Assembly: GCA_964577955.1 (NCBI GenBank)
Contig: CAZOAZ010000013.1
Coordinates: 48,284-112,283 of the forward strand
Direction: 5' to 3'
Length of the DNA stretch: 64,000 nucleotides
Origin: an uncultured Bifidobacterium sp.
Lineage (GTDB): Bacteria; Acidobacteriota; Vicinamibacteria; Vicinamibacterales; CAVVIG01
Position numbers and translations under genes: made by a program. Numbering within the stretch: the stretch's first letter is position 1; each line of letters opens with the position of its first letter. A model generated the notes under the pieces. The model did not search any database. It was given only the letters and a program-made list of their open reading frames with translations, and was not told where the DNA came from. This document shows positions 45,478-64,000 of this stretch, one piece after another.

Positions 45478-48051
45478 TCAGCCGACGATGCCGACCGCGC
45501 CGAAAACCGCCGCCGGTGTCGTTCGCTCGCGCCCCCGAAAGAACCACTGTTTCGTGAGTTCGGCCGCGAGCATGTAGCACCCGGCCAGCAGGACGATCGC
45601 GCCCACCATGCTGGCCGGCAGCGCCTCGAAGCCGAAGAACGTCGCCCAGGGCACGTATGGAATGCCGATCGCGACGCCAATGAGAAGCACGGTCGACGTC
45701 AGCAACAGCGTGCCGGGCCGGCTGCGCCAGAACGGCCGCCGGGTCCGGACCACGAGCGCCACGACCAGTTCCGTCAGCAGCGACTCGACGAACCATCCGG
45801 TCCGAAAGCGCTCTGGCGAGGCGTGGAAGAACCACGCCAGGATCGCGAAGGTCGCCAGATCGAAGACCGAACTGAGCAGACCGAAGACGACCATGAACCG
45901 GCCAATCATCCGCAAGTCCCAGCGCTCCGGCCTTGCCACCAGTTCCGGATCGACGGCATCGTCGGCAATCCCCGCGGCCGGAACGTCGGACAGAAAGTTG
46001 TTCAACAGGATCTGCCCGGGCAACATCGGCAGGAACGGCAACACGGTCGATGCGAACGCCATGCTGATCATGTTGCCCAGGTTGGCGCTCATCGTCGTCA
46101 GCAAGTACTTGATCGTGTTGGCGAACGTGCGACGCCCTTCCTCGATCCCGCGCCGGATGACGTCGAGATCGTGTTCGAGCAGGACGAAGTCGGCGGTGGC
46201 CCGCGCCACATCGACCGCGCCGTCGACGGACAGGCTCGTATCGGCGGCCCGCATCGCCGGCGCATCGTTCACGCCGTCGCCCAGAAAGCCGACCACATGG
46301 CCACCCTTGCGCAGGGCGCCGATAATGCGCTCCTTCTGATTCGGATCGACCTCGACGAAGAGATCCGTGCGATCGACTGCCCGCCACAAGGCATCGTCGC
46401 TCGTGGCGTCAATCTCGTCGCCGCTCAGCATGCGGGCGCCTTGAATACCGACGAGGCTCGCGACGTGGGCCACCACTGACCGGCTGTCGCCGCTGATGAC
46501 CTTCACGCTGACGCCGAGCTTCGCCAGCGCGTGGATCGCCTGTGGGGCGTCGCTTTTCGGCCGGTCGAAAAACGTCAGGAATCCGAGAAACGAGAGATCG
46601 TGCTCGCTCGCGCGGTCGCACGGTTCATCGGGCTGGAGGTCGCGAGTGGCCAACGCGAGCACGCGAATGCCGCGACTGCTCCAGCGCTCGTAGCGGGCGG
46701 TCAGACGGCTCTGAACCGCGCTATCGATCGGCGTGCCGTCGGCGAGGCGGGCGCAGGCTTCGAGCACGCGGTGGAACGCGCCTTTGGTCACCAGCTGCCG
46801 GCGATACCCCGTGCGATAGGCGACGCTCAGCCGCTTGCGAATGAAGTCGAACGGAATCTCGCCGAGTTTTTCGACCGTTCCGAGATCGGGCCGCCCGGCG
46901 TCGAGAATCGCCGCGTCGAGCGGATTATCGAGGCCGGTCTGCAGCGCCGCGTTCAAGGCGGCGGCGCGCAACACGTCCGGCGACTCCGCGCCATCCGCGT
47001 CGAACGCGCCCTCGAGCTTGACGGCGCCTTCGGTGAGGGTGCCCGTCTTGTCGGTGCAGAGAACGTCGATGCTGCCAAGATTCTCGATCGCGTTCAGCCG
47101 TCGCACGAGCACGCCGTGCGCCGCCAGATTCGCCGCGCCACGTGAGAGGTTCACGGCAAGAATCGCGGGCAGCAGTTCGGGGCTGAGACCGACCGCAAGC
47201 GCGACGGCAAAGAGGAGCGTGTCGATCGGCGAGCGCGCACCCAACAGGTGCACGAGGACGATGGCCAGGACCAGGGCGAGCATCGCGCTGGTCAGGAAAT
47301 AGCCGAACCGGCGCAGTCCGCGTTCGAATTCCGTTTCCGGGGCGCGCTCGAGCAAGTGGGCGGCGATGCGCCCGAATTCGGTGCGCGCGCCCGTGTTGAC
47401 GACCACGCAGGTCCCCCGTCCGCTGCGGACGTTGGTGCCCAGAAAGAGCGCGTTGGTTCGCGCGGTGAGCGGCGCATCGGCCGGAACGGTCCCGACGGTC
47501 TTGGCGACTGGAAAGCTTTCGCCGGTCAGGACCGCTTCGTTGATGAACAGCTCGGTCGCATCCAGGAGCAGCGCATCGGCCGGGACCAGGTTCCCGGCGC
47601 TCAGCAAGACGACATCGCCCGGCGCGAGCTCTTCGATCGGGACGTTGGTGAGCTGACCGTCGCGGAGTACGCGCGAGGTCGTGCGAATGCGCGACTGGAG
47701 CGCGGCGGCGGTCATTTCCGCCGCGTATTCGCGCCAGAATCCGATCGCGACGGTGGCGACCACAATGGTCAGGACCACCGAGGCGTCGATCCATTCGCGC
47801 GAGGCGCCCGAGGCGACAGCGGCGAAGATCAGAATCGCGAGCAGCGGATTGCGGAACTGCTTGAGGAAGACCCGCATCCCGGTCAGCTCGCGGTGGGATC
47901 CGATCCGGTTGGGTCCTCCGTCGCGCAACCGGCGCGCCGCCTCCTCGGTACTGAGGCCGAGCACGCTCGCCGTCAGCGCAGTCAGGACGGCGGCGGCCGG
48001 CTCGGCCCAATAGCGAAGCTCGCGCGCCGGGCCGGGATCTGACGCCTTCAC
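45478..48051 (-). CDS. mgtA: Magnesium-translocating P-type ATPase
   Basis: LTGES, LSPELLP, DKTGTLT, GDGVNDAP and MLPGQILLNNFLSD. Confidence 0.9.
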   Translation of the reverse strand: MKASDPGPARELRYWAEPAAAVLTALTASVLGLSTEEAARRLRDGGPNRIGSHRELTGMRVFLKQFRNPLLAILIFAAVASGASREWIDASVVLTIVVATVAIGFWREYAAEMTAAALQSRIRTTSRVLRDGQLTNVPIEELAPGDVVLLSAGNLVPADALLLDATELFINEAVLTGESFPVAKTVGTVPADAPLTARTNALFLGTNVRSGRGTCVVVNTGARTEFGRIAAHLLERAPETEFERGLRRFGYFLTSAMLALVLAIVLVHLLGARSPIDTLLFAVALAVGLSPELLPAILAVNLSRGAANLAAHGVLVRRLNAIENLGSIDVLCTDKTGTLTEGAVKLEGAFDADGAESPDVLRAAALNAALQTGLDNPLDAAILDAGRPDLGTVEKLGEIPFDFIRKRLSVAYRTGYRRQLVTKGAFHRVLEACARLADGTPIDSAVQSRLTARYERWSSRGIRVLALATRDLQPDEPCDRASEHDLSFLGFLTFFDRPKSDAPQAIHALAKLGVSVKVISGDSRSVVAHVASLVGIQGARMLSGDEIDATSDDALWRAVDRTDLFVEVDPNQKERIIGALRKGGHVVGFLGDGVNDAPAMRAADTSLSVDGAVDVARATADFVLLEHDLDVIRRGIEEGRRTFANTIKYLLTTMSANLGNMISMAFASTVLPFLPMLPGQILLNNFLSDVPAAGIADDAVDPELVARPERWDLRMIGRFMVVFGLLSSVFDLATFAILAWFFHASPERFRTGWFVESLLTELVVALVVRTRRPFWRSRPGTLLLTSTVLLIGVAIGIPYVPWATFFGFEALPASMVGAIVLLAGCYMLAAELTKQWFFRGRERTTPAAVFGAVGIVG

Positions 48052-48064
48052 CCGAGTCCTCGAT

Positions 48065-48949
48065 CTATTTCCGGACCGTCAGCACGGGACAGTCCGCACG
48101 GCGGACGAGCTGCTGTGCCGTCGAGCCGAAGAGCGCGAGGTCGGCCACGCTTCGCCCGTGCACACCGAGGACGATCAGGTTCGACTGCTCCTCGGCGGCG
48201 ACCCGGAGAATCTCGTCGGACGGCCGTCCATGGCTGATGCGAGCCGAGCAGCGGCCACGAAATCCTTCGGGCTCGAGGCCTTCGAGGCGCGTCCGTGCGG
48301 CCGCCTCGCGGCGGGCGCGGAACGACTGCAGCGCCTCGGCTTCCGCACGCGGGATCTCGCCAAACGCCGGCGCCGGCGGTTCATGCCAGGGCCACTCGAG
48401 CACATGAAGCAGCGTGATCCGCGTTTCGCCGCCGAGCGAACCGGCGAGGAGAAACTCCAGCGCTGCCAGCGAGCAATCAGAAAAATCGACCGCGCACAGC
48501 ACCCGCGCGGATGCGAGTGAAAAGGCCGGCGCACTGTGCGGCGGCACGGTCAGGACGGGACACGACGCCCTCCGCAGCACCTTCTCCGCGACCGATCCGA
48601 GCATGGCGCGGTCGAAGCCGCTCGCGCCGTGCGTCCCGATGACGATGAGGTCGGCATGCAGGGTGTCCGCCGCGGCGAGGATCTCGGTGGCCGGCCGGCC
48701 TGGCCGCGTCACGAGTTCGATACCGTCAGACCCGGCGTCGACCCCAATACGCGCCAGAATGGATTCAGACAGGCCGCCGTGACACGCGGTCAACTCCTCC
48801 GCTCGGTCGGTCCCGCTTTCAATCACGCGCAGCGCGGTCAGGCGTGCGCCGGTCCACCGGGCACAGGCCACGGCCTGCGCCAGCGCCATCAAAGACGGCT
48901 CGGACAGGTCGAACGGACAGAGGATGCGTTCGATGCGCGCGGCAGCCAT
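48065..48949 (-). CDS. Universal stress protein (tandem domains)
   Basis: RILCPFDLS and RVLCAVDFS; two G-HG...GS motifs. Confidence 0.92.
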   Translation of the reverse strand: MAAARIERILCPFDLSEPSLMALAQAVACARWTGARLTALRVIESGTDRAEELTACHGGLSESILARIGVDAGSDGIELVTRPGRPATEILAAADTLHADLIVIGTHGASGFDRAMLGSVAEKVLRRASCPVLTVPPHSAPAFSLASARVLCAVDFSDCSLAALEFLLAGSLGGETRITLLHVLEWPWHEPPAPAFGEIPRAEAEALQSFRARREAAARTRLEGLEPEGFRGRCSARISHGRPSDEILRVAAEEQSNLIVLGVHGRSVADLALFGSTAQQLVRRADCPVLTVRK

Positions 48950-48952
48950 GCG

Positions 48953-50459: not shown

Positions 50460-50650
50460 GCCCATTGCGGGCGGGACCTTCGTTGGCGCGTCGGCGACCG
50501 CGGCGTCTCCTCATCGCGGCGCCGCCAGTCTTGCTGACAAGCATGTACGCCGCGTTTCACGTCCTCGTATGGCCGTTCGGCCTGCGTCTCGGCTACTTCA
50601 CCGGCACGTTTTTCCCGATTCTTCGCGGGCCCTCGCAGATAGCGGAATAA
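50456..50650 (+). pseudogene. Short hydrophobic ORF, possibly the 5' remnant of a membrane protein gene
   Basis: GTG overlaps the DUF998 stop (GTGA); 64 aa with hydrophobic LLTSMYAAFHVLVWPFGLRLGYF, ending at the next enhancer boxes. Confidence 0.3.
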
Positions 50651-50676
50651 CTCCCACCCGCACGAAAACTTTCGCA
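50644..50676. promoter_or_regulatory. Tandem putative enhancer boxes (degenerate)
   Basis: GGAATAACTCC (50644) and GAAAACTTTCGCA (50664). Confidence 0.4.
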
Positions 50677-50729
50677 CCTCCATCGATGCCGAACGCCGCG
50701 ATCGCCCAACAGGCGGCCGGCGCTGCGAC

Positions 50730-50743
50730 GGCACGACGTCTGC
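50730..50743 (+). promoter_or_regulatory. sigma54 -24/-12 element
   Basis: cGGCACG-acgt-CTGCt. Confidence 0.6.
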
Positions 50744-50790
50744 TGTGCACCCTCACGCAGTTTTTATCCATCGACCAGGAGGAACCGACC

Positions 50791-52173
50791 ATGTCAGGAA
50801 CTCAGCGCTGGAGCGCCCACTCCTTCCTCGCCGTCGCCGCACTGCTCGCTCTCCCCATTGCCGCGGGCGCGGCTGAACCGGCCAAGCGGGTGACGTTCTC
50901 GAAGGACGTGGCGCCGATCTTTCAAGCCAAGTGTCAGTCGTGTCACGAGCCGGGATCGATTGCGCCGATGTCGCTGGTCACCTTCGAGGAGGCGCGCCCC
51001 TGGGCCAAGTCGATCCGCAATCGCGTCGCGACCCGCCAGATGCCGCCGTGGCACATCGACCGCAGCGTCGGCGTGCAGAAGTTCAAGAACGACATGTCGC
51101 TGACCGACGAGCAGCTGGACACCGTCGTGGCCTGGGTCGATCAGGGCGCGCCGCAGGGCGATCCCGCCGATCTGCCGCCCGTCCGCCCGATTTCCACGTC
51201 GCTGTACTGGCAGGCCGAACGCGACGGCTATGGTCCACCCGACATCGTCGTCAAGTCGGGCGAACAGACGATGCCGGCGCTCCATCAGGATGAATGGTGG
51301 CGGCCGCTCGTGGACATTCCGATCACCGAACCGCGCTGGGTGCGCATGGTCGAAATCCGCCCCTCCAATCTGCAGGGACGCAAAATCCTTCACCACTCGA
51401 TCGCCTATCAGGTGCTGGTCCCGGAGAACGTGGACGCCGTCAACACCGGCGTCGGACGTGGCTTCCCCGCCGGCGGCAGCGCCGACGACCGCGTCAATCG
51501 CCGGCCGCAGCTGATGGAATGGGCGATCGGCAAGGGCTACGACCGCTACATGGACGGCACCGGCAAGCTGATCATGCCGGGCGAAAAGATTTCGTGGGAC
51601 GAGCACATTCACGCGGCCGGCGAGGACATCACGGCCGGATCGGAGCTCGGGCTCTGGCTGTACCCGAAGGGCGAAGAGCCGAAGAAGCGGACGTACTTGA
51701 TCGCCTTCAGCGGGCTCAAGGACGGACCCGGACGGCTCGACATCCCGCCGAACTCGATCGCCCACACCGAAGGATTCACGGTGCTGCGTGAGAACACGAT
51801 CATCACCAACTTCCAGCCGCACTTCCATCTGCGCGGCAAGGCGATGCAGGTCGAAGCGATCCTGCCTGACGGGCGGACGCAGGTGATCAGCTACGTGGAC
51901 AACTTCAACTTCAACTGGATGACGAACTACATCTACGCCGAAGAGGCGTCGCCGGCGTTCCCGAAGGGCACGATCATCCACGTCACCGCCTTCTACGACA
52001 ACACCAAGGCCAACAAGAACAATCCCGATCCGGATCAGTGGGTCGGCTACGGCGATCGCACGGTCGACGAGATGGCGCACGCCTGGATGAACGTGGTCTA
52101 TCTGACCGACGCCGAGTACCAGACCTGGCTGGCCACACACAAGCCGGCCGGCGCGGGCACACAGAACCAGTAG
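50791..52173 (+). CDS. Exported monoheme cytochrome c fused to a copper type II (PHM/DBH-like) monooxygenase-like domain
   Basis: Signal peptide; CQSCH...MPPW; ILHHS, EHIH, PHFHLRG and DEM; RBS AGGAGG. Confidence 0.7.
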   Translation: MSGTQRWSAHSFLAVAALLALPIAAGAAEPAKRVTFSKDVAPIFQAKCQSCHEPGSIAPMSLVTFEEARPWAKSIRNRVATRQMPPWHIDRSVGVQKFKNDMSLTDEQLDTVVAWVDQGAPQGDPADLPPVRPISTSLYWQAERDGYGPPDIVVKSGEQTMPALHQDEWWRPLVDIPITEPRWVRMVEIRPSNLQGRKILHHSIAYQVLVPENVDAVNTGVGRGFPAGGSADDRVNRRPQLMEWAIGKGYDRYMDGTGKLIMPGEKISWDEHIHAAGEDITAGSELGLWLYPKGEEPKKRTYLIAFSGLKDGPGRLDIPPNSIAHTEGFTVLRENTIITNFQPHFHLRGKAMQVEAILPDGRTQVISYVDNFNFNWMTNYIYAEEASPAFPKGTIIHVTAFYDNTKANKNNPDPDQWVGYGDRTVDEMAHAWMNVVYLTDAEYQTWLATHKPAGAGTQNQ

Positions 52174-52192
52174 CGCGCGAGGAGAGACTCAC

Positions 52193-53119
52193 ATGAGACG
52201 ACAGACCTTGCTTCAGTTCTGCGCGCCGCTCGCCCTGGTGGCGGGCGGCGCCATGCTCTCGGCGCAGACGCTCCTGCCCAGCACGCCGCCGAAGGGATTC
52301 GGCGCGAGCGTCACGCCGGCCTTCGAGGGCTGGTTCGACAATCCCGACGGCACGCACAGTTTTCTGATCGGCTACTACAATCGGAACACGAAGGCTGAAC
52401 CCGACGTACCGCTCGGCCCCGAGAATCACTTCGAGCCGGGCAGCGCCGACATGGGGCAGCCGACGCACTTCCTCACCGGCCGCCGCTACGGCATGTTCGT
52501 CTACAAGATGCCGAAGGAATTCGGGAAGAACCAGAAACTGACGTGGGTGCTCACCGTCAACGGCGTCACGAGCAAGGTGCCGTTCTACATGAGCTCCGAC
52601 TACAACATCACGCCGACCAAAGCGTCCGAGCAGGGACCGAATGGCGGATACAACCTGCCGCCCGTCCTCCGCTTCGCGGCCGCTGGTCCGGGTATCGCCG
52701 GTCCGATGGCCCACCCGGCGACCCCCGCGAAATCGATGAACGCGGTGGTCGGCGTACCGCTGCCGCTCAACTTCTGGGCGGACGACGATGCCCAGTACAC
52801 CAGCGGCGCGAACAGCGAGATGCGCAACGCGCCGCCACCGGTGGAGTTGACGCTCTCGAAGTACCGCGGCCCGGGGAACGTCACGTTCGCGAGCGCGCGG
52901 CCGAAGATGGAAGCCATCAAAGGCGGCAAGCCGGAGGAGCCCTACAGCGGTTCAGCGGCCACCACCGCCACGTTCGATCGCGCCGGCGACTATCAACTGC
53001 ATGTCACCGCCAACGACTACTCCGGCAACGGCGGAGGCGGTGCCGGATGCTGCTGGACGACTGCGATCGTGCAGGTGCACGTCAAGGGTGGTGCGCCGAC
53101 GCCGACCGGCCACAACTGA
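52193..53119 (+). CDS. Exported hypothetical protein, probable partner of the upstream gene
   Basis: Signal peptide; VTPAFEGWFDNPDG...GYYNRN; Ig-like C-terminal half; GCCW. Confidence 0.75.
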   Translation: MRRQTLLQFCAPLALVAGGAMLSAQTLLPSTPPKGFGASVTPAFEGWFDNPDGTHSFLIGYYNRNTKAEPDVPLGPENHFEPGSADMGQPTHFLTGRRYGMFVYKMPKEFGKNQKLTWVLTVNGVTSKVPFYMSSDYNITPTKASEQGPNGGYNLPPVLRFAAAGPGIAGPMAHPATPAKSMNAVVGVPLPLNFWADDDAQYTSGANSEMRNAPPPVELTLSKYRGPGNVTFASARPKMEAIKGGKPEEPYSGSAATTATFDRAGDYQLHVTANDYSGNGGGGAGCCWTTAIVQVHVKGGAPTPTGHN

Positions 53120-53154
53120 TGGCTCCGGCATCGACACCACAACAAGGAGTCTCT

Positions 53155-53667
53155 GTGCCGACGAATCAGATTCTGACCCTGCTCGCCGCCGCGGCGCTGA
53201 TGCTTTCAGGATGCGGCGGTGCCAATCAGACGCCGCCGGCGCAGGCGACGGCGGCGTCAGCGACGACTCCGACGATTCCGGTCAGCATCAATGCGGTGAT
53301 GGTGCGGGTCGTCGACCACGGCTCGCACCGTCTCTGGGACATCGAGAAACCGGAGATGATGCCGAAGAACGAGTCCGACTGGGAAACGCTCGAAGAGCAC
53401 GCCACACAGGTTGCCGCGGCCGGAGCCTTGATTCAGCTGGAAGGTACCGGAGTCAACGATCGCGATTGGGTGCAGCAGCCGGAGTGGCGGAAGTGGGCGC
53501 ATGAGGTCTCGAACGCCGGCCTGGCGGCTTTCAACGCCGCCCAGGCCCGGAACGTCCAGGGCGTGATCGAGGCCAACGGCCGCCTGGTCGACGCCTGCCT
53601 CGGCTGCCACGCCCGGTTCAAGCCAACGCTGCCCAGCGAGGGCATCGTCCATTCGCACGTCCACTAG
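53155..53667 (+). CDS. Cytochrome c'-like lipoprotein
   Basis: RBS AAGGAG; lipobox LSGC; C-terminal CLGCH. Confidence 0.75.
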   Translation: MPTNQILTLLAAAALMLSGCGGANQTPPAQATAASATTPTIPVSINAVMVRVVDHGSHRLWDIEKPEMMPKNESDWETLEEHATQVAAAGALIQLEGTGVNDRDWVQQPEWRKWAHEVSNAGLAAFNAAQARNVQGVIEANGRLVDACLGCHARFKPTLPSEGIVHSHVH

Positions 53668-55688: not shown

Positions 55689-55922
55689 CTACTTGCAACC
55701 ACACCCGCCGCTCTGCACGCCGAAGCCGCCGGCGGCGGCTTCGCGCGCTTCCTGCCAGTGGGCGGCGTATGCCGACGCCGACCTGTCGGCATCGAAGATC
55801 ATGCAGGGGTCGGCGAGACGACCGCGCTGCCAGGGTTGAACCGTCGCGCAGCCGCCGCTGGCCAGCGCGACCAACAGCGCGGCGAACGCTGCCGCCCGTG
55901 CGGCGCGTCGATCGGTCGTCAT
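55689..55922 (-). CDS. DUF4266 lipoprotein
   Basis: Lipobox GGC; VQPWQRGRLA...EAAAGG.G...GGCGCK. Confidence 0.9.
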   Translation of the reverse strand: MTTDRRAARAAAFAALLVALASGGCATVQPWQRGRLADPCMIFDADRSASAYAAHWQEAREAAAGGFGVQSGGCGCK

Positions 55923-56410
55923 GGTGCCTCCGCAAGAAGCTGACTGATTTCCGCCTGGTAGCGGTCGAGAATCTTGGTCGAGTAGCCGATGTGCGTGAAT
56001 CTGATCACGCCTTTGCGATCGACGACAAACGAACTCGGCATCCCCTTGACGTTGAAGGCGCGAGGAGCCTCGCCCTTCGGATCGAGCGCAACCGGCATCA
56101 CGTGCGGATGCTCCGCCAGGAACGCGTCTGCCTGCCGGCGGTCCTCGTCGACGTTGATCGCCAGCACCTCGAGCCCGCGCGCGCGTTCGGACTGATACAA
56201 CGCGTCAAGGGCGGGAAACGACGCGCGGCACGGAACGCACCAGCTTGCCCAGAAGTCGACGACCAGGACGCTCCCTTTGTAGTCAGTGGCACGCACCAGG
56301 GTGCCATCAATGAGACGCAACGGGGTGTTGGGGAGCGTCGCGGGTGCGACCGCTTCAGTCCCGGCGAACGTGCTGACGACAATCCCGACCACGAGCGCTG
56401 CGCGAATCAT
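55919..56410 (-). CDS. TlpA-family thiol:disulfide oxidoreductase
   Basis: VDFWASWCVPC and GMPSSFVVD. Confidence 0.9.
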   Translation of the reverse strand: MIRAALVVGIVVSTFAGTEAVAPATLPNTPLRLIDGTLVRATDYKGSVLVVDFWASWCVPCRASFPALDALYQSERARGLEVLAINVDEDRRQADAFLAEHPHVMPVALDPKGEAPRAFNVKGMPSSFVVDRKGVIRFTHIGYSTKILDRYQAEISQLLAEAP

Positions 56411-56443
56411 TCTCACAAAAGCTCCAGGCAATGAGGACCGCGA

Positions 56444-57514
56444 CTACCTCACGGGGACGCGAAGTCCGGCTGATGCAATCGCGGCTTCGAACCCGTTGTC
56501 GCTCCGATACCGATCATACTGAAAGGTCAGCGCCGTTCCCGGCGGCAACCCGAAGAGCCCGCGACGCGGCGAGAGCGCAATCTTCCCGGTATACAGATCC
56601 GACGCGAACGGCTCGAGACGAAAATCGGCGGTGAAGAACTGGGGCGTGCCGCTGTACTCCGGTTCGTAGAAATACGCGCCGGTTTGCGCCGACCGACGAT
56701 AAACGGCGCCAGCGAGCAGCGCCGGCGAGAAATGGTGCGACAGCCCCACCGACCACGCGTTGGCGTGAATCTGCCAGTCGTCCGCGTAGCGCCGATAATC
56801 GGCCTCCAGATAGGTTTCAGCCGGAAGCGCCTGGCGCAGGCGGGCGGTCACGGTCTGTCGGGTTCGCACATCCGGCACATGGCCGAGCATGAGCGTGCCG
56901 CCGACATCGGCACGAAGAAACGGATTGTCCTGATAGCCAAGCAGGCGCGCGAATTCATAGCCAGCCTGGACGATCGTCAGCTTCGAAAGGACCTGGGTGA
57001 GCGACACATAGGCGTTATGGCTGAACTGATTCTCCCGCTGGACGGTGGGATGCAGCTTTGGTTGATTCAGCGACACGGTGTAGCCGCCCGCCAGCGTGGT
57101 GTTGTCGGCTCGAAAGTTGCGGGCGAGTGACGTCAAGAGCGTGGTCGAGCGGTAGAAGTTCTCCTGGCTGTAGGAGCCGCCAACCGTGAATTTGACGGCG
57201 TCGAACTTGCGCGTCATCGACCCGCCGGCCTCCTGCCGGCGGCTGTCCGCGCCGTCATGGTGGCAGCGGGCGCACGAATTCGACGCCGCCGAGATCGCAT
57301 CGAGGCCGTAGCTGATCCGAAGGCTCGTCCGATCGGTGACATCTCTCGTGAAATCGACGGTCGGACTGAAGACCGAGACCGTACGCGAGTCCTGAAAGAC
57401 ATGCATCTGGACGTTGACCTCGTTGCCCTGCGCCCGTCCCAGGGTCACCGACGCAACCCACAGCGCGGACACGGCAGCGGCGGCGAGCACGGTGCGGCAG
57501 CGCATCATCGTCAT
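56444..57514 (-). CDS. DUF3570 outer-membrane beta-barrel-like protein
   Basis: Signal peptide; DAISAAS, YRRYADDWQIHA; alternating beta-strand pattern. Confidence 0.8.
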   Translation of the reverse strand: MTMMRCRTVLAAAAVSALWVASVTLGRAQGNEVNVQMHVFQDSRTVSVFSPTVDFTRDVTDRTSLRISYGLDAISAASNSCARCHHDGADSRRQEAGGSMTRKFDAVKFTVGGSYSQENFYRSTTLLTSLARNFRADNTTLAGGYTVSLNQPKLHPTVQRENQFSHNAYVSLTQVLSKLTIVQAGYEFARLLGYQDNPFLRADVGGTLMLGHVPDVRTRQTVTARLRQALPAETYLEADYRRYADDWQIHANAWSVGLSHHFSPALLAGAVYRRSAQTGAYFYEPEYSGTPQFFTADFRLEPFASDLYTGKIALSPRRGLFGLPPGTALTFQYDRYRSDNGFEAAIASAGLRVPVR

Positions 57515-57517
57515 TCT

Positions 57518-57937
57518 TCAGCGGCGCTCCGCTGCGTCGTAGACCACCATCCAGCGAAACACCAGCGCGGCACGGGCCGTGGCGTCGCCGCTGAAGTACC
57601 GATACATGCTGCCGCCAGGGGCGGACGTCACGACCAGCGGGCTTTGCGCGTCTCCGGGTCGCTGTCCGTCGAGCACGTCGGCGTACGACGCGACTGAATA
57701 CCCGCCTTCGCGCTCGCGCGCCCCATGACAGCTGGCGCAATCGGCATCGAGAATGGGTTTGATGTCCTGAACGTAGGCCAGCGGTCGGGGGGCGAGCGAC
57801 GAGGGGCCAAACGGAAAGCCCGGGTCGGACCGATCAGTCGCCCCTTGCTGCCGCACGCATGACGTGGTTGCCGCCAGCAGAACCACGACGCACGCGGCCG
57901 AAACGAACGGTCCGAGATGGTAGGTTGGCATTCGCAA
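57518..57937 (-). CDS. Small c-type cytochrome lipoprotein (planctomycete cytochrome c-like)
   Basis: TSC lipobox; YVQDIKPILDADCASCHG. Confidence 0.7.
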   Translation of the reverse strand: MRMPTYHLGPFVSAACVVVLLAATTSCVRQQGATDRSDPGFPFGPSSLAPRPLAYVQDIKPILDADCASCHGAREREGGYSVASYADVLDGQRPGDAQSPLVVTSAPGGSMYRYFSGDATARAALVFRWMVVYDAAERR

Positions 57938-58078: not shown

Positions 58079-58486
58079 ATGAGAACAGGTGTACTGCCTT
58101 TGCTGATGGCCGGACTGGCGGTGACGAGCGCCGTGGCGCAGGATGCGAAGATCGAACGCGGCAAGTACCTCGTCGAAGAAGTATCCCGCTGCCAGGAATG
58201 CCACACGCCGAAGACCGAGAGCGGCGAGTTCGTCAAAGAGCAATGGATGAAGGGCGCCACGCTCAACATCACACCGTCCGGCACGATCGCAGGATGGCAT
58301 CAGCGCTCGCCTGACATCACGTCGAGCAGCCCGTTGTGGCAGCGGTGGGGTCAGGACGGATTCGAGCGGTTCCTCCAGACCGCGAAGAACCCGCGCGGCG
58401 GCAAAGCCGGTCCGCCGATGCCCGCCTACACGATGAAAGCGGAAGACGCGGCCGCGATCGCCGCATATCTCAAGTCGCTGCCCTGA
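58079..58486 (+). CDS. Periplasmic class I monoheme cytochrome c
   Basis: Signal peptide; RGKYLV...CQECHTP; distal Met in PPMP. Confidence 0.88.
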   Translation: MRTGVLPLLMAGLAVTSAVAQDAKIERGKYLVEEVSRCQECHTPKTESGEFVKEQWMKGATLNITPSGTIAGWHQRSPDITSSSPLWQRWGQDGFERFLQTAKNPRGGKAGPPMPAYTMKAEDAAAIAAYLKSLP

Positions 58487-58528: not shown

Positions 58529-60166
58529 TCACTGCGTCTGTCCGTACCGCCGCCGCATCTCATTCAGGATCTGTTCGGCCTGCTCTTCTGCACCACGCCG
58601 AATCCAGACGTGCTCCGGGCGATCCAGGATCGCGTCGATGACCGCGTTGACACGACGCCCGGCCTCGGCCCGGCCGGTACGCGCCGCGTCGGCCGTGATC
58701 GCGCGGGCCTGCGGCAGCAGCTTCATGTAAAACCGTTCCGCGACCTCGAACATGCCATGCCACTGGGTGTAGTCGGGTGCCATCATCGAGGCCCCCATCC
58801 GCGCGCGCCGTCCTTCGTGGTGCCAGAGGTAGTACCACGTCCACTCGATTTCTTCGTCGTACTGCGTCTTGCTGAGCAGCCCGTTCGACGACAGGGCGGC
58901 CATGATCGCCTGCCCCGGCTTCGCGAACTTCTCGTTGTACTGCACGACCACATCGTCGTACTGGCGATAAAACAGGTTGATGTGATCGGGCGTGTGGCAG
59001 TTCGAACAGACGGTCTTCATCCGATTGCGTTTGGCGTCGGCGGTATCCGCCGTTGCCGCCGCCCGCCTGGCCGGATCGGTCTCCACGACCACGTCGTGCG
59101 CCGCCGTGGTATCCATCACCAGACTCACGGGCGGACGATTCGTCCAGGAAATCCGTTCGCCGGGATCGTGAGTCGACGTCATCCCGTTCCTGAGATTGGC
59201 GCCCATGTGGCAGCTCGCACACGTTGGCGCGGCGCTGTAGTCGCGCCCGAGCACCCACGGCCGTGCGTCGAGATTCATCTCGGCGATCAAGTCGCGGAAC
59301 GCGACGCCGTGTTTCGATTCCTCGTAGATCTCCTTCTGCGGGTGGTCCGGACCCAGATGGCACTTGCCGCAGCTCTCGGGTTGGCGGGCGCGGCGTGCCG
59401 AGAAGTCGTGCCGGCTGTGGCAGGCCGCGCACGAGCCGAGCGAACCGTCGAGATTGATCCGGCCGATGCCGGTGTTCGGCCAGCTGCTGCTCGCAAACTG
59501 CGGCCGGCCGCTGTCGTTCTTCGCGATCCGCCCCAGCGCCTCGCTGTTGGCCGGGACACCGCGATCGTCGGGCTGGAGGTCGCGCACGGTGATGGTCCCG
59601 CCGCTCGTCGCCTGGAGCGCCACGACGGATCCATGACACTGCTGGCATCCGGAGTTCGCCGGCGCGAGACCGTTCACCATCGTCACGGCTTTCCCTGGCG
59701 TCGGCGAATGCGGGCTGAACGGCGTTCGCGCGCCCTCAACGGTCTCGGCCAGAAAGTTGTCGAGCGACGCGAGAATGTTGCCGGCCTTCGAATGATGGCT
59801 GGCGGCGAACTCGGTCGCCTGCGTTGGATGGCAGGCCGCGCAATCACGCGGCGTGACGACGGTCGCGATCTGCGCCCCGTAGTGATTGAAGGCATCGGCA
59901 TCCTTCGGCCCGGCCTTGTGGCAGTCGATGCAGCCGACGCCTTTCTCGGCATGGGTCGATCCCCGCCAGTGCTCGACGATGCCGACATCGACCTGCGTGT
60001 GGCAGTCGACGCATTGCCGCGATGACGCCGGTGGCGTGACGGCCGCGCGGCGTCCGCCAGACTCCTGCCGGCGGCGCGCCACCTCGAGCCACTGCACCGC
60101 CACGAGCGACAGCAGGAACAGCACCCCAAGCCCGCCAATCACCCACCGCTTTTGTTCGAGTGTCAT
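58529..60166 (-). CDS. HAO-family octaheme cytochrome c with N-terminal membrane anchor
   Basis: Eight CxxCH motifs (CVDCH, CIDCH, CAACH, CQQCH, CAACH, CGKCH, CASCH, CSNCH); CHLGPDHPQ; WPNTGIGRIN; MAPDYTQWHG. Confidence 0.88.
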   Translation of the reverse strand: MTLEQKRWVIGGLGVLFLLSLVAVQWLEVARRRQESGGRRAAVTPPASSRQCVDCHTQVDVGIVEHWRGSTHAEKGVGCIDCHKAGPKDADAFNHYGAQIATVVTPRDCAACHPTQATEFAASHHSKAGNILASLDNFLAETVEGARTPFSPHSPTPGKAVTMVNGLAPANSGCQQCHGSVVALQATSGGTITVRDLQPDDRGVPANSEALGRIAKNDSGRPQFASSSWPNTGIGRINLDGSLGSCAACHSRHDFSARRARQPESCGKCHLGPDHPQKEIYEESKHGVAFRDLIAEMNLDARPWVLGRDYSAAPTCASCHMGANLRNGMTSTHDPGERISWTNRPPVSLVMDTTAAHDVVVETDPARRAAATADTADAKRNRMKTVCSNCHTPDHINLFYRQYDDVVVQYNEKFAKPGQAIMAALSSNGLLSKTQYDEEIEWTWYYLWHHEGRRARMGASMMAPDYTQWHGMFEVAERFYMKLLPQARAITADAARTGRAEAGRRVNAVIDAILDRPEHVWIRRGAEEQAEQILNEMRRRYGQTQ

Positions 60167-60203
60167 ACCGCTCCTCAGCACCGTAGACCGCGGACGCCGT
60201 CGC

Positions 60204-61253
60204 CTAATGCGCGACGAGCGCCTCCCACATCGTCAAGCCGATGATCGTCAGCGCGCCGACGACGCCGATCCAGACCGAGATCTCCGGATACTTGAACCGC
60301 TTGACCAGCCAGGCATCGATGAACGGCCAGACGAACATCGTGAACAGGATCAACCCCTGCGTCAGCACGGCCATCGTGCCGGAAAAGAGCTTCAGCCAGC
60401 GGAAGGCGACGTAGAAATACCACTCCGGCTTGATCACCTCCGGCGTGACCAGCGGGTTGGCGCGCGGCCCCATCTCCGCGGGGAGCAGCGTGGCGAGCGC
60501 GCTGAGGAGAATCATCAGCGTCAGGCCGATGATCAGCTCAGTGTAGAAGTGATCCGGGAAGAAGTTGAACTGCTTGGCGGGGCGATCGCGATCCGCGTCG
60601 AACTCGTGCTCGGTCACCCCCAGCATGCGCACCATGCCGATGTGCATCATCAGCACCAGGATCAGCGTCACGGGAAGAACCGCGCCGTGCAGGATGAAGA
60701 ATCGCGACAGCGTGCGGTCGTTGTATGACGCGCCGCCAAGCAGCAAGTCCTTCAGCAGCGGTCCGACCAGCGGGATCGTGTCGCTGATGTTGGCCGCAAC
60801 GGTCGCCCCCCAGAAGCTCAGTTGCTCGAAGACCAGGCTGTAGCCGGTGAAGCCAAGCATCAGCGTGCAGACGAGCAGCGTCATGCCGATCATCCAGTTC
60901 AGTTCACGTGGACGGCGGTAGCTCCCGGTGAAGAACACCCGCATCTGATGCAGGACGACCGCGGCAATCATCAAGGTGGCGCCCCAGCGGTGCAGCCCGC
61001 GGAGGTACCAGCCAAACTGCGCCTGCTCGGTGATGTAGCGCACCGATTCGTAGGCGGTCGACGCCGACGGCTGGTAGTAGAAGGCCAGCAGCACGCCGGT
61101 GACAATCTGCACGACGAAGAGATACGCCGGCGTCCCGCCGAGGGCGAACCACCAGCGCTTGAGGTGATACGGCACCGGCTCGTTGGACATCGCCGCAATC
61201 GAATCGAGCGAGATCGGCACTCGCTCGTCGAGCCATTGACGCGCGCGACTCAT
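60204..61253 (-). CDS. Cytochrome b of a Rieske/cytb complex (fused b + subunit IV type)
   Basis: LHRWG...VLHQMRVF, ILHGA...MMHI and the Qo-site motif PEWY. Confidence 0.92.
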   Translation of the reverse strand: MSRARQWLDERVPISLDSIAAMSNEPVPYHLKRWWFALGGTPAYLFVVQIVTGVLLAFYYQPSASTAYESVRYITEQAQFGWYLRGLHRWGATLMIAAVVLHQMRVFFTGSYRRPRELNWMIGMTLLVCTLMLGFTGYSLVFEQLSFWGATVAANISDTIPLVGPLLKDLLLGGASYNDRTLSRFFILHGAVLPVTLILVLMMHIGMVRMLGVTEHEFDADRDRPAKQFNFFPDHFYTELIIGLTLMILLSALATLLPAEMGPRANPLVTPEVIKPEWYFYVAFRWLKLFSGTMAVLTQGLILFTMFVWPFIDAWLVKRFKYPEISVWIGVVGALTIIGLTMWEALVAH

Positions 61254-61816
61254 GCCCGCCGCCCGTCGCGCGCGCACGCCGCGCCGCGGGCCTGGCGCCC
61301 CATCGACAGCTCCTCGGCCGGCACGAGGATGTAGAGCAGGCCGGCGTCGACGGCCAGTTCGTACCGCGGCAGCGACTGGCCGGCCTCGAACGGCGGACCG
61401 CCGGTCGCCTTTCCCGAGGGATCGAAGGTGCCGTTGTGGCACGGACAGAAGTAGCGGTTGTTCTGCCCTTCCCACTTCACCTGGCAGCCGAGATGCGGAC
61501 ACGTGCTCGAGAGCGCCACCACGTCCGACACCGCGTTGTCCTTCGCGCGCCGGGTGATGTTCACGGTGCGGCCGTCCGGCGTCAGGTACATCAGCGTGGA
61601 TCCGAGCTCGAGCGCATCGAGCTGGGTCACGAACAGGCGATGCTTGCGGCCGCGGTCGGCCGGCAGCATGAACCGCGCGCCGATCCAACCGAAGAATCCG
61701 TAGCCGCCCAGCAGGCCGGCCCCCATGAAGACCCGCGCGACCATCGCCAACACGCCACGACGCGGCAGCAACGGCGGCACCGTCTCGGGAGCGGGCGGAA
61801 GAGGAACGTGGGCCAT
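61250..61816 (-). CDS. Rieske [2Fe-2S] protein
   Basis: Tat-like PRRGVL plus TM; CPHLGC and CPCHNG. Confidence 0.92.
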   Translation of the reverse strand: MAHVPLPPAPETVPPLLPRRGVLAMVARVFMGAGLLGGYGFFGWIGARFMLPADRGRKHRLFVTQLDALELGSTLMYLTPDGRTVNITRRAKDNAVSDVVALSSTCPHLGCQVKWEGQNNRYFCPCHNGTFDPSGKATGGPPFEAGQSLPRYELAVDAGLLYILVPAEELSMGRQARGAACARDGRRA

Positions 61817-61819
61817 GAT

Positions 61820-63442
61820 CTAGAAGGGCGCGAAGCCCTGGGACGGAAAGCCGGGCATCGAGTGCAGACGATAGAGCGGCTCGGCATAGGCGAGCAGGAT
61901 CAGCACGACGCCCACGACGGTCCAGAAACCGAACCGGTCCCAGAGCGACGGCCCCGGCGTCACCGGCACCAGCGATTCGGCATACTCGATCGGTGCCGTT
62001 TCGCCTCGCGGCGCGACGAGCATCGTGCCGACGATCACGAGCAGGAAGCATGCTGACGACAGCACGAGGATGACGCCGCCAATCGCCGAGAAGTTGACGT
62101 ACGGCTGCCAGCTTGCCGCGACGGCCGATCCCGAGTACGCGCTGGTATAGATGCGGCGCGGCATGCCGAGCAGGCCGACGATGTGATTGGGAATGCTGAA
62201 ACACATCATGCCGGCGAACCAGAGATACGGCTGCACCGTCGCCAGCGCCGGCAGGATCAACGCGCGCCCGGTCAGCCGCGGCAGCATCCAGTAGCTGACG
62301 CCCATGAACGTCAGCGCCACCGCCGTGCCGACGGTCAAATGAAAGTGTCCCTGGACCCACGCGGTGTTGTGGACCATCGCGTTCATCGCGTAGGCCGCGT
62401 TGATCGCGCCGCCGAAACCACCGAGCGCGAACGTCACCATCGACAGCGCCACGCCGGCAAAGAACGGATCGCGCCACGGCAGCGCGCCAATCCAGCCGAA
62501 GAGTCCTTGCCCACCGCGGGCCCGCCCCGCATTTTCGAGCGATGCGATCACGGTGAAAGCGGTGACCAGGCTCGGAAACATGATCGCGTAGGTCGTGAAG
62601 GTGTGGACCAGCTTCCAGCCGTTCGAGATGCCGGGATCGGTGAACTGGTGGTGGAAACCGACCGGCGTCGAGAACAAAATGAACTGCACGAAGACGACGC
62701 GAGTCACCGCGTCGCTGAACAATTTGCCGCCGGCAACGCGCGGAATGGTCGTGTACCACAGGACGTAGGCCGGGATCAGCCAGAAGTACGTCAAGGGGTG
62801 CCCGAACCACCAGAAGTACGTCCGCGCGGCAATCGGATCGATGGCGCTGACGAAACCAAGTGACCACGGCAGGATCAGCACCAGGACTTCAATCGCCAGC
62901 CCCGTTGTCGCCAGGATCCAGACGATGACCGCCGCCATCATTCCATGCGCGGCCAGCGGAATCCGCGCGTCCCGGTGCTGCTGCCGCCAGGCGCGATAGC
63001 TGAACACGACAATGGCCGACCACACCCAGGACCCGATGATCAGCAGCGTCGCCCCGATGTAGAAGGCCGGATGCGCTTTGAGCGGCGGATAGAACGTGTA
63101 GAGCACCGTACTGCTGCCCGACAGGATGGCCATCGTCGTGAGCGTGGTCCCGACGACCGCGCACCAGAAACCGCCCCACGCCCATCCGTGCGCGACAATC
63201 CGCCCCAGCGTCGACTCGACGACCAGGTAGCCGAGCGCCATGATGAAGAACGTGGTGAAGACGAGCGCCATCAGCACGCCGTGGGCGGTCACCGAGAGGT
63301 AGTAGAGGCTCGCCGATCCGAACGGCAGATCGATCCCGGCGCGAGCAAGCGCCTGCATCACACCGAGCAGCGACGCCACCGCAAAGGCTGTGACGGCCAC
63401 CCAGAAATTCGACAGGACGAGACGCGTGCCGGCGGCGGTCAC
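61820..63442 (-). CDS. cbaA: B-family (ba3-type) heme-copper O2 reductase subunit I
   Basis: TAHGVLMA, WFGHPLTYFW (His-Tyr cross-link pair), GFHHQF and GHFH. Confidence 0.9.
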   Translation of the reverse strand: MTAAGTRLVLSNFWVAVTAFAVASLLGVMQALARAGIDLPFGSASLYYLSVTAHGVLMALVFTTFFIMALGYLVVESTLGRIVAHGWAWGGFWCAVVGTTLTTMAILSGSSTVLYTFYPPLKAHPAFYIGATLLIIGSWVWSAIVVFSYRAWRQQHRDARIPLAAHGMMAAVIVWILATTGLAIEVLVLILPWSLGFVSAIDPIAARTYFWWFGHPLTYFWLIPAYVLWYTTIPRVAGGKLFSDAVTRVVFVQFILFSTPVGFHHQFTDPGISNGWKLVHTFTTYAIMFPSLVTAFTVIASLENAGRARGGQGLFGWIGALPWRDPFFAGVALSMVTFALGGFGGAINAAYAMNAMVHNTAWVQGHFHLTVGTAVALTFMGVSYWMLPRLTGRALILPALATVQPYLWFAGMMCFSIPNHIVGLLGMPRRIYTSAYSGSAVAASWQPYVNFSAIGGVILVLSSACFLLVIVGTMLVAPRGETAPIEYAESLVPVTPGPSLWDRFGFWTVVGVVLILLAYAEPLYRLHSMPGFPSQGFAPF

Positions 63443-63915
63443 GGGCGATCCTCGACGATGACGGCTGCCTGCATCAGGTGATGGGCCAGGCCGCAGTACT
63501 CGTTGCAGACGACCAGATACTCGCCCGGCGTGTGGAACGTCGTGGTCGCTTCGCTGACGTAGCCGGGCGACACCGTGAGGTTCACGTTGGTATTGACGAT
63601 CTGGAAGCCGTGCAGCACGTCGGCGCTGGTGACGCGAAACGTCACTGGCCGGCCGACCGGCACGTGGATCCGAAACGGACGAAATTCGTACATCGCGGCG
63701 CGGATCACCACGGTCACGCCGCCGTCGGCATCAGCCACGACGCCCGGCGTCGAGAACTCTCCGGACACCGTGAGCGCCGACGGATCGACCATCTCCGAGT
63801 GACTCGGCGGATGCGTCGAGCCGACCACCGCGGTGACGACGATCGCGGCGGTGAAACACACCAGCATCGCGGTGGCGGCCCACATCCAGTAGCGCTCGGA
63901 GGGATTGACGTGCAT
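63439..63915 (-). CDS. cbaB: B-family oxidase subunit II (CuA)
   Basis: One TM; DVLHGF...CNEYCGLAHHLM. Confidence 0.92.
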   Translation of the reverse strand: MHVNPSERYWMWAATAMLVCFTAAIVVTAVVGSTHPPSHSEMVDPSALTVSGEFSTPGVVADADGGVTVVIRAAMYEFRPFRIHVPVGRPVTFRVTSADVLHGFQIVNTNVNLTVSPGYVSEATTTFHTPGEYLVVCNEYCGLAHHLMQAAVIVEDRP

Positions 63916-63923
63916 GCCGTCGC

Positions 63924-64000
63924 CTACGGCGCGTTCCTGGGCATGAACAGCCCGAAGAAGAACGCGAGCCAGCCGAGCACCACCAGCGCCCCGAAGACAC
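63924..64000 (-). CDS. Probable oxidase subunit IIa (single TM), 5'-partial
   Basis: ...VFGALVVLGWLAFFFGLFMPRNAP* immediately upstream of subunit II, the position of cbaD. Confidence 0.6.
   Translation of the reverse strand, partial: VFGALVVLGWLAFFFGLFMPRNAP

Follow-up and report, generated by a model that had tools for sequence, protein, structure and literature searches.

A Rieske-cytochrome b-octaheme module joined to a ba3-type oxidase in an acidobacterial operon: a candidate composite respiratory system for oxygen and nitrogen oxides

Which protein stands in for cytochrome c1 when a Rieske/cytochrome b complex is encoded without one, and to which acceptors would its electrons go? The question is raised by a 64-kb stretch of contig CAZOAZ010000013.1 (positions 48,284 to 112,283; assembly GCA_964577955.1), hereafter the window, to which, or to whose proteins, all coordinates and residue numbers refer. 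At one end of it (58529-64000), six co-oriented and near-abutting genes on the minus strand encode a subunit IIa-like peptide, a CuA-bearing subunit II and subunit I of a ba3-type oxidase, a Rieske protein, cytochrome b and an octaheme cytochrome c of the HAO (hydroxylamine oxidoreductase) family (Table 1). We lean, with slightly better than even confidence, to the view that a Vicinamibacterales-like acidobacterium here carries a composite operon for microoxic/anoxic respiration, in which a menaquinol-oxidising Rieske/cytochrome b core would use the octaheme both as its c-type subunit and as an N-oxide reductase, and would send electrons on to the ba3 oxidase.

The octaheme gene was followed through a scan of one genome per species, in which about 590 stretches with octaheme relatives were confirmed; the octaheme-side counts given here use the best 80 loci. 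These belong to at least eight phylum-level groups, among them Acidobacteriota (Vicinamibacterales, Thermoanaerobaculia and others), Gemmatimonadota, Planctomycetota, Chloroflexota (Anaerolineales) and Binatia, and further carriers include a Chlamydiae bin, UBP7 and Myxococcota-like bins. In 80/80 loci the octaheme gene (64-82% identical) is directly preceded by one for cytochrome b (58-86% identical), and a Rieske gene was detected upstream in 69/80, the remainder being short contigs that end just upstream, plus one complete Gemmatimonadota chromosome. More distant octaheme relatives (46% and 43% identity) also follow a cytochrome b gene. Because cytochrome b stands upstream throughout the 80 loci and in these more distant relatives, the conserved unit is Rieske-cytochrome b-octaheme, with the octaheme in the c1 position; the replacement of c1 by the octaheme, proposed in a first-pass annotation of this DNA, is borne out by the same adjacency and by the invariant membrane-helix residues described below. 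To our knowledge, this three-gene module has never been studied biochemically. On the Gemmatimonadota chromosome (L012, 7441-7926) the search upstream of the octaheme recovered only a C-terminal part of cytochrome b and found no Rieske gene, which could reflect masked sequence, a frameshift or decay of the copy. Still further out, a 36%-identical relative closes a napGHB..LD operon, an εHao-type context, and shares the DY[AT]HWHG motif; one 38%-identical relative has neither a cytochrome b nor a nap context. A protein-cluster search returned more than 7,900 octaheme clusters at 90% identity, and in a library of 1.84 billion representatives the cross-phylum family forms a single full-length cluster at 50% identity, the next full-length relatives being 42-52% identical, which indicates strong constraint on the family.

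The octaheme protein has features that would suit it to a place in such a complex. A GAGGAG box precedes its likely start codon, and a charged stretch comes after a long N-terminal hydrophobic helix. Across 29 aligned octaheme sequences from different phyla, five residues in the membrane helix or at its flanks (F22, S25, L26, Q30 and E33) are invariant; since these residues lie inside the membrane anchor, their conservation argues for a fixed intramembrane partner of the helix and against a cleaved signal peptide. The eight CxxCH motifs (residues 57, 84, 114, 179, 251, 271, 321 and 392) are likewise invariant in this alignment, as are D279, H280 and R349, and 13 invariant histidines outside the motifs would be enough for seven distal ligands. 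The match to PF13447 scores 73.1 bits against a curated cut-off of 21.9, and the solved relatives, led by IhOCC (4QO5, 1e-43), include a Kuenenia HAO-like protein (6H5L, 5e-21) and NeHAO (4FAS, 9e-16), followed more weakly by Kuenenia HOX and HDH (4N4J, 3e-12; 6HIF, 8e-10). A family profile strengthens all of the matches to HAO-clade structures (4QO5: 4e-53). An AlphaFold2 model of the monomer, built without haems from an alignment of 42 sequences, was too poor for haem ligation to be read from it (mean pLDDT 57.5, pTM 0.38).

Would such a protein do more than conduct electrons? Were the octaheme a pure wire, a large c1 substitute without turnover of nitrogen compounds, its standing at the c1 gene position in every locus would be accounted for, as would the half of the loci that have no adjoining N-oxide reductase gene. 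We consider this improbable all the same, given that the distal Asp-His pair of HAO and the residues around it are invariant across phyla, that the cross-phylum identity of the octaheme (64-82%) is far above that of the Rieske protein (40-69%), and that its closest relatives of known activity are enzymes (PMC8042395). The pair in question, D279-H280, aligns to the catalytic Asp267-His268 of NeHAO, where IhOCC has Asp-Val, and NeHAO Tyr334 aligns to Arg349; among 42 close homologues taken as a second set, H280 again never varies and at least 90% retain D279. The claim of the first-pass annotation that the octaheme is tied to N-oxide chemistry is upheld by this invariant pair and by the napAB genes that stand directly downstream in 40/80 loci.

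The direction of that chemistry may be judged from the cross-link site. A segment of NeHAO (residues 424-503, ...NPGGWTY467TEGW..., verified against 4FAS) was aligned by MAFFT with the octaheme of the window and 17 homologues of 34-79% identity. Tyr467 of NeHAO falls on Gln473, a position held by His in most relatives and in the relative with the εHao-type context (motif DY[TA][HQ]WHG), and a smaller alignment shifts Tyr467 by one, onto the invariant Trp474. Neither alignment puts a Tyr at the cross-link position, but the loop has gaps and an invariant Tyr471 lies 2-3 residues upstream, so that the case for an octaheme without the cross-linking Tyr appears good but not final. A missing cross-link Tyr is regarded as the mark of reductive HAOs, and both εHao and HAOr act as reductases (PMC8042395); for reductive forms, a His at the key position has been reported (PMC12758564). 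Because this Tyr is missing, the nearest known relatives are reductive (IhOCC, Kuenenia HAOr and the εHao-like context) and the genes are linked to Nap, the octaheme is most likely a nitrite, hydroxylamine or NO reductase as well as the c-subunit of the complex, and not a hydroxylamine oxidiser.

The opposite direction, in which the octaheme would oxidise hydroxylamine (or hydrazine or NO) and deliver the electrons to the ba3 oxidase, had also been put forward at first pass. It draws on the family membership of the protein, on the adjoining oxidase and on the label 'hydroxylamine dehydrogenase' that JGI gives to relatives, yet we hold it to be very improbable: Gln or His stands where NeHAO has Tyr467, the octaheme's nearest relatives act reductively, ties to both NapAB and a quinol oxidase fit a flow of electrons toward the octaheme, and no amo-like genes were seen nearby in the loci examined. 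The JGI label is carried by the proteins P0005, P0011, P0015, P0018 and P0045, and some members of the octaheme family are called 'hydroxylamine oxidoreductase' at NCBI. Because the cross-link Tyr is missing and the genomic context is one of Rieske/cytochrome b and Nap genes, labels of this kind could inflate the apparent nitrification potential in metagenome surveys.

Favouring a reductive role, nitrate reductase genes neighbour the module in half of the loci. The napA gene, located by direct tblastn and identified by an NCBIfam equivalog above its curated cut-off, comes directly after the octaheme gene in 40/80 loci and is followed by a NapB-like gene, a link that had escaped the first-pass annotation. 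The NapB-like protein has 190-200 aa, four CxxCH motifs and a marginal match to the NapB Pfam model (L012, 12011-12613; L006, 12073-12648), and it may be a doubled or tetrahaem variant of NapB adapted to docking on the octaheme. The inspected loci of the octaheme module showed neither NapC nor NapGH genes, which leaves the Rieske/cytochrome b complex as the obvious quinol dehydrogenase.

The sequences of the Rieske protein and cytochrome b bear on the quinol that this complex would oxidise. Hydrogen bonds from a Ser and a Tyr raise the potential of the bc1 Rieske cluster, as is known from bc1 mutants. The 80 loci yielded 71 Rieske motifs, and in 59 of them box II reads CPCHNG[VTA]F, without the Ser and Tyr of the high-potential bc1 protein; this absence suggests a cluster of lower potential, which would be suited to menaquinol. 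Cytochrome b has its best solved match in cytochrome b6 (E = 2e-52), with a match to subunit IV over residues 240-335, and it retains both His pairs, the four ligands of the b haems, and the PEWY motif of the Qo site; Cys35, the ligand of haem cn in b6f, is replaced by Ala. Its true ATG (61253) sits within a spurious open reading frame of 887 aa and overlaps the Rieske stop by 4 nt. Features of the anammox type were looked for in 58529-64000, and neither a split b6 plus subunit IV nor a gene for an NAD(P)/FeS subunit was found. In one relative (L089, 1-3133, minus strand), a second Rieske and cytochrome b pair lies behind a GltD-like FeS/FAD protein of 653 aa, 4-7 kb upstream of the ba3 operon. 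Such a GltD-like gene with a second pair occurs in 2/16 relatives and recalls the Rieske/cytochrome b (R/b) complexes of anammox bacteria with their NAD(P) oxidoreductase; the window ends before the corresponding position.

At the other end of the operon, the oxidase genes could be assigned with little ambiguity. Subunit I matches the ba3 oxidase of Thermus thermophilus (1EHK/1XME) with E = 1e-124 over residues 17-527, nearly its full length, against E = 5e-16 for caa3 (2YEV) and 0.0025 for the ccoN model; its GHPLTYFWLIPAY aligns to GHPITYFWLLPAY of ba3, and the helix-VI stretch GHP(L/I)TYFWL(I/L)PAY is common to both (GHPLTY vs GHPITY; HPxxY motif). Since the protein is far nearer to ba3 than to caa3 and shares this stretch, the oxidase is of the B-family. 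Subunit II has a single N-terminal helix and is without a fused cytochrome c domain; its CuA ligand pattern, H...CNEYCGLAHHLM, was read from the sequence, and the CxxxCxxxHxxM pattern is present. A small hydrophobic peptide encoded 5' of subunit II would fit a subunit IIa (CbaD)-like protein, and L089 encodes, at the equivalent position, a complete single-helix peptide of 44 aa with the same tail as the frame cut by the window end. Exact look-ups of proteins of the window in the contig collection found no match, and the DNA past position 64000 was therefore judged from relatives.

The junctions of the six genes are, in gene order, a gap of 7 nt (IIa-like stop to subunit II start), an overlap of 4 nt (subunit II stop and subunit I start), a gap of 3 nt at the boundary between oxidase and Rieske genes, a second overlap of 4 nt and a spacing of 22-37 nt. 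These lengths, together with profile and structure-sequence matches, confirm the six near-abutting genes and the identities given to them at first pass. No c1-, f- or dihaem-type cytochrome c gene is present in the operon, as had also been stated then, and what had been overlooked, besides the Nap link, is a convergent monohaem cytochrome c gene just beyond the octaheme. A scan for promoters and terminators found no promoter-like site, and terminator-like sites were no more frequent than in shuffled controls.

How general is the link between oxidase and module? Of the 80 octaheme loci, 11 have ba3 genes within 8 kb. For the oxidase side, 80 loci were fetched in which subunit I is 60-78% identical. 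All 21 loci at or above 72% identity are Vicinamibacterales-like and show the order cox2-cox1-Rieske-cytb-octaheme, mostly then followed by napAB. The more distant ba3 loci comprise six with this order again, five in which it is Rieske-cytb-octaheme-napA-napB-cox2-cox1, one where oxidase and module are neighbours in divergent orientation, and 47 that hold ba3 alone. The order of the window thus occurs in 27 independent genome loci, a recurrence that makes chance an insufficient account of the arrangement, and ba3 and the module are adjacent in 33/80 ba3 loci. Three arrangements of the linkage have thus arisen, one of them stable; this is more than accident, but the linkage is not family-wide for either partner. 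The synteny check suggested with the first-pass annotation, a search for ba3-Rieske-cytb-HAO across genomes, therefore has a divided outcome, with co-conservation in the Vicinamibacterales-like loci and in three orders, and without it in most of the octaheme loci and in the solitary ba3 loci. An acidobacterial locus (L156, 9706-16008) carries a divergent copy of the module (cytochrome b 47%, octaheme 47% and NapA 43% identical) directly behind cox2-cox1. Because this divergent copy too lies behind the oxidase genes, the oxidase linkage would seem to be older than the main clade, or independent of it.

The 47/80 related ba3 loci that stand alone and the 69/80 octaheme loci without ba3 within 8 kb mean that the adjacency may reflect co-regulation only. 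The genes would then form a low-oxygen island without physical coupling, and CuA would be fed by a diffusible cytochrome c, either the 58079-58486 protein or one encoded elsewhere, as c552 feeds the ba3 of Thermus. The monohaem cytochrome c gene 43 bp downstream of the operon and a second small cytochrome c at 57518-57937 would supply candidates for that role. Against it stand the 4-nt overlaps or 3-7 nt gaps that run across the oxidase/Rieske boundary, the linkage in 21/21 Vicinamibacterales-like loci and its re-creation in two further gene orders, and the fact that the neighbouring cytochrome c genes are conserved in no relative. We regard co-regulation without coupling as a possible explanation, and not the one that we would expect.

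Returning to the composite operon, its working may be sketched as follows. Quinol would be oxidised at the Qo site (PEWY), one electron passing through the b haems in a proton-motive Q cycle and the other by way of the Rieske cluster, of low-potential type, to the octaheme's chain of haems. The octaheme would be wire and enzyme at once: its HAO-type haem, with the Asp-His pair and without the cross-linking Tyr, would reduce nitrite, hydroxylamine or NO in the manner of IhOCC, εHao and HAOr, and its outer haems would pass electrons to whichever partner reductases are co-encoded, namely CuA of ba3 in the genome of the window and NapB/NapA, also or instead, in most relatives. The net result would be a single electrogenic quinol dehydrogenase for oxygen and N-oxide acceptors, and because this dehydrogenase would be a Q-cycle enzyme, all of the reductions coupled to it would be proton-motive. 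What the sequences show are the identities and close packing of the genes, the conservation of the triad, the frequencies of its linkage to nap and ba3, and the conserved active-site residues. In this scheme we infer the catalytic direction, the substrate and product, a five-coordinate haem 4, direct transfer to CuA and a stable supercomplex; direct wiring of the octaheme to CuA would be plausible, and a physical supercomplex of ba3 and octaheme we infer purely from gene adjacency.

Along with the many unlinked loci, several observations weigh against the composite operon as we picture it. HAO-family proteins are trimers and Rieske/cytochrome b complexes are dimers, a mismatch of symmetry for a stoichiometric c1 substitute. 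The loop that bears the cross-link site is gapped, with Tyr471 close by. No napA was found by tblastn in the whole 64-kb window, so that the module would receive no nitrate in this genome; two close relatives (L081 and L084) are also without napAB. A bolder form of the proposal, a branched supercomplex of the Vicinamibacterales and, sporadically, of other Acidobacteriota, in which the octaheme sits on the Rieske/cytochrome b dimer and serves CuA, NapAB and its own nitrite-, NO- or hydroxylamine-reducing haem, strikes us as doubtful and rather unlikely. Were it true, simultaneous and fully proton-motive respiration of oxygen and N-oxides would take place in abundant soil bacteria, and many of the 'hao' hits in soil metagenomes would mark hybrid respiration and not nitrification.

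The first-pass annotation had named no characterised system with this combination of genes, and this holds for one half of it only: the pairing of Rieske/cytochrome b with a HAO-like protein has precedents in Kuenenia (PMC12954380) and Caldithrix (PMC5317091), and in the literature searched, itself incomplete, none was found with a B-family oxidase. The closest precedent is the R/b-2 complex of Kuenenia stuttgartiensis (Kuste4569-4574), which likewise joins a b6-like Rieske/cytochrome b complex to a HAO-family octaheme without the cross-link Tyr, and whose subunits co-migrate experimentally; a role in quinol-driven nitrite reduction has been proposed for its octaheme, Kuste4574, which AlphaFold3 reportedly failed to place on the complex (PMC12954380). 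Seating a trimer-type enzyme on a dimeric bc complex poses a structural problem for the anammox complex as well. The Kuenenia complex has a split b6 and subunit IV, an extra hexa- or octahaem cytochrome and an NAD(P) oxidoreductase subunit, with no oxidase or Nap genes, whereas the operon of the window, as known from its genes, has a fused cytochrome b, no NAD(P) module, the octaheme as its sole c-type subunit and a co-encoded ba3. In Caldithrix abyssi, Rieske and cytochrome b genes lie in a nap cluster beside εHao, and the Rieske/cytochrome b proteins have been proposed as donors to Nap and εHao (PMC5317091). The εHao of Campylobacterota and Caldithrix is, like the family of the window, without the cross-link Tyr and linked to nap, and it reduces nitrite and hydroxylamine (PMC8042395, PMC5317091); it is described as periplasmic and fed by other quinol dehydrogenases, in contrast to the family of the window, which has a conserved membrane helix, stands always behind cytochrome b/Rieske genes and is about 36% identical to the relative with the εHao context. 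The best solved match, IhOCC of Ignicoccus hospitalis (Igni_0955, 4QO5), is an octaheme of the HAO clade without P460 and is listed as a nitrite reductase (PMC9250108), but it differs in having Asp-Val in place of Asp-His, in being archaeal and found in soluble and membrane fractions, and in having no reported link to Rieske/cytochrome b.

For the oxidase half, the ba3 of Thermus thermophilus (CbaDBA) is alike in its subunit I, in a small CuA subunit II that bears no cytochrome c domain and in its one-helix subunit IIa; it is fed by soluble c552 from a separate bc complex, whereas the oxidase genes of the window translationally abut the Rieske/cytochrome b/octaheme module. The actinobacterial bcc-aa3 offers a precedent for a Rieske/cytochrome b complex with a non-c1 cytochrome wired directly to an oxidase, and the Qcr complex of Campylobacter is cited as a Rieske/cytochrome b complex that feeds periplasmic Nap electrogenically (cited in PMC6896113). 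The former uses a dihaem QcrC and an A-family oxidase and the latter dihaem/monohaem c; neither has a catalytic octaheme. Surveys of metagenome-assembled genomes (MAGs) report hao, napAB and R/b genes jointly but give no description of the operon (PMC10732223), and several MAGs of that study are among the loci fetched here. In the literature searched, which was incomplete and offers absence of evidence only, no paper was found on a Rieske/cytochrome b/octaheme module joined to a B-family oxidase. The octaheme beside the bc-like operons of Nitrospina and M. oxyfera (PMC3578206) was considered and is not claimed here as a member of the family; those operons have a split cytochrome b.

If the octaheme is the c-subunit of a Rieske/cytochrome b complex that is usually coupled to NapAB, 'hao' hits in metagenomes of soil, sediment and wastewater should be read as nitrate/nitrite reduction and not as nitrification. 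The use of a Q-cycle complex in place of quinol dehydrogenases of the NapC/NrfH type would, moreover, make periplasmic nitrate and nitrite reduction proton-motive and raise its energy yield. The junction with ba3 suggests that one quinol-oxidising engine might be shared between oxygen and N-oxides where oxic and anoxic zones meet, in the abundant soil Acidobacteriota.

Table 1. Features of the operon at 58529-64000 and of the convergent cytochrome c gene beside it
Feature	Coordinates	Strand	Evidence and remarks
Subunit IIa-like (CbaD-like) gene, 3' end	63923..64000	-	last 24 codons ...VFGALVVLGWLAFFFGLFMPRNAP*, stop at 63923; rest beyond window end
Haem-copper oxidase subunit II, CuA domain	63439..63915	-	158 aa; PF00116 E = 1e-10; TIGR02866 E = 4e-17
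B-family (ba3-type) haem-copper oxidase subunit I	61820..63442	-	PF00115; closest to T. thermophilus ba3
Rieske [2Fe-2S] protein	61250..61816	-	PF00355; CPHLGC and CPCHNGTF boxes; RR-containing N-terminal anchor
Cytochrome b, fused b6-like N-half and subunit-IV-like C-half	60204..61253	-	349 aa; PF00033 E = 5e-53; PF00032
HAO-family octaheme cytochrome c, membrane-anchored	58529..60181	-	eight CxxCH; PF13447 E = 3e-20; likely start ATG 60166
Monohaem class-I cytochrome c, signal sequence	58079..58486	+	PF00034 E = 1e-7; convergent with octaheme, 43 bp beyond octaheme stop

None of about 165 fetched loci yielded a homologue of the convergent monohaem cytochrome c; the protein may be a soluble shuttle, but it is no conserved component of the system. 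Beyond it, a cluster of three genes on the minus strand (55919-57937) encodes the small cytochrome c mentioned above (139 aa, CASCH), a DUF3570 protein (356 aa, CARCH) and a TlpA-like thiol-disulfide redoxin (WCVPC); the cluster may be a module for the maturation of cytochromes or copper centres or an outer-membrane redox module, and it is not conserved beside the operon in relatives. Three co-oriented genes on the plus strand (50569-53667) encode a protein of 534 aa with one cytochrome c domain (CQSCH), one of 308 aa and one of 179 aa that ends in CLGCH, the latter two having no Pfam match. A P-type cation ATPase (866 aa) behind a tandem universal stress protein (295 aa) is encoded on the minus strand at 45478-48952, and both are apparently ordinary neighbours unrelated to the operon.

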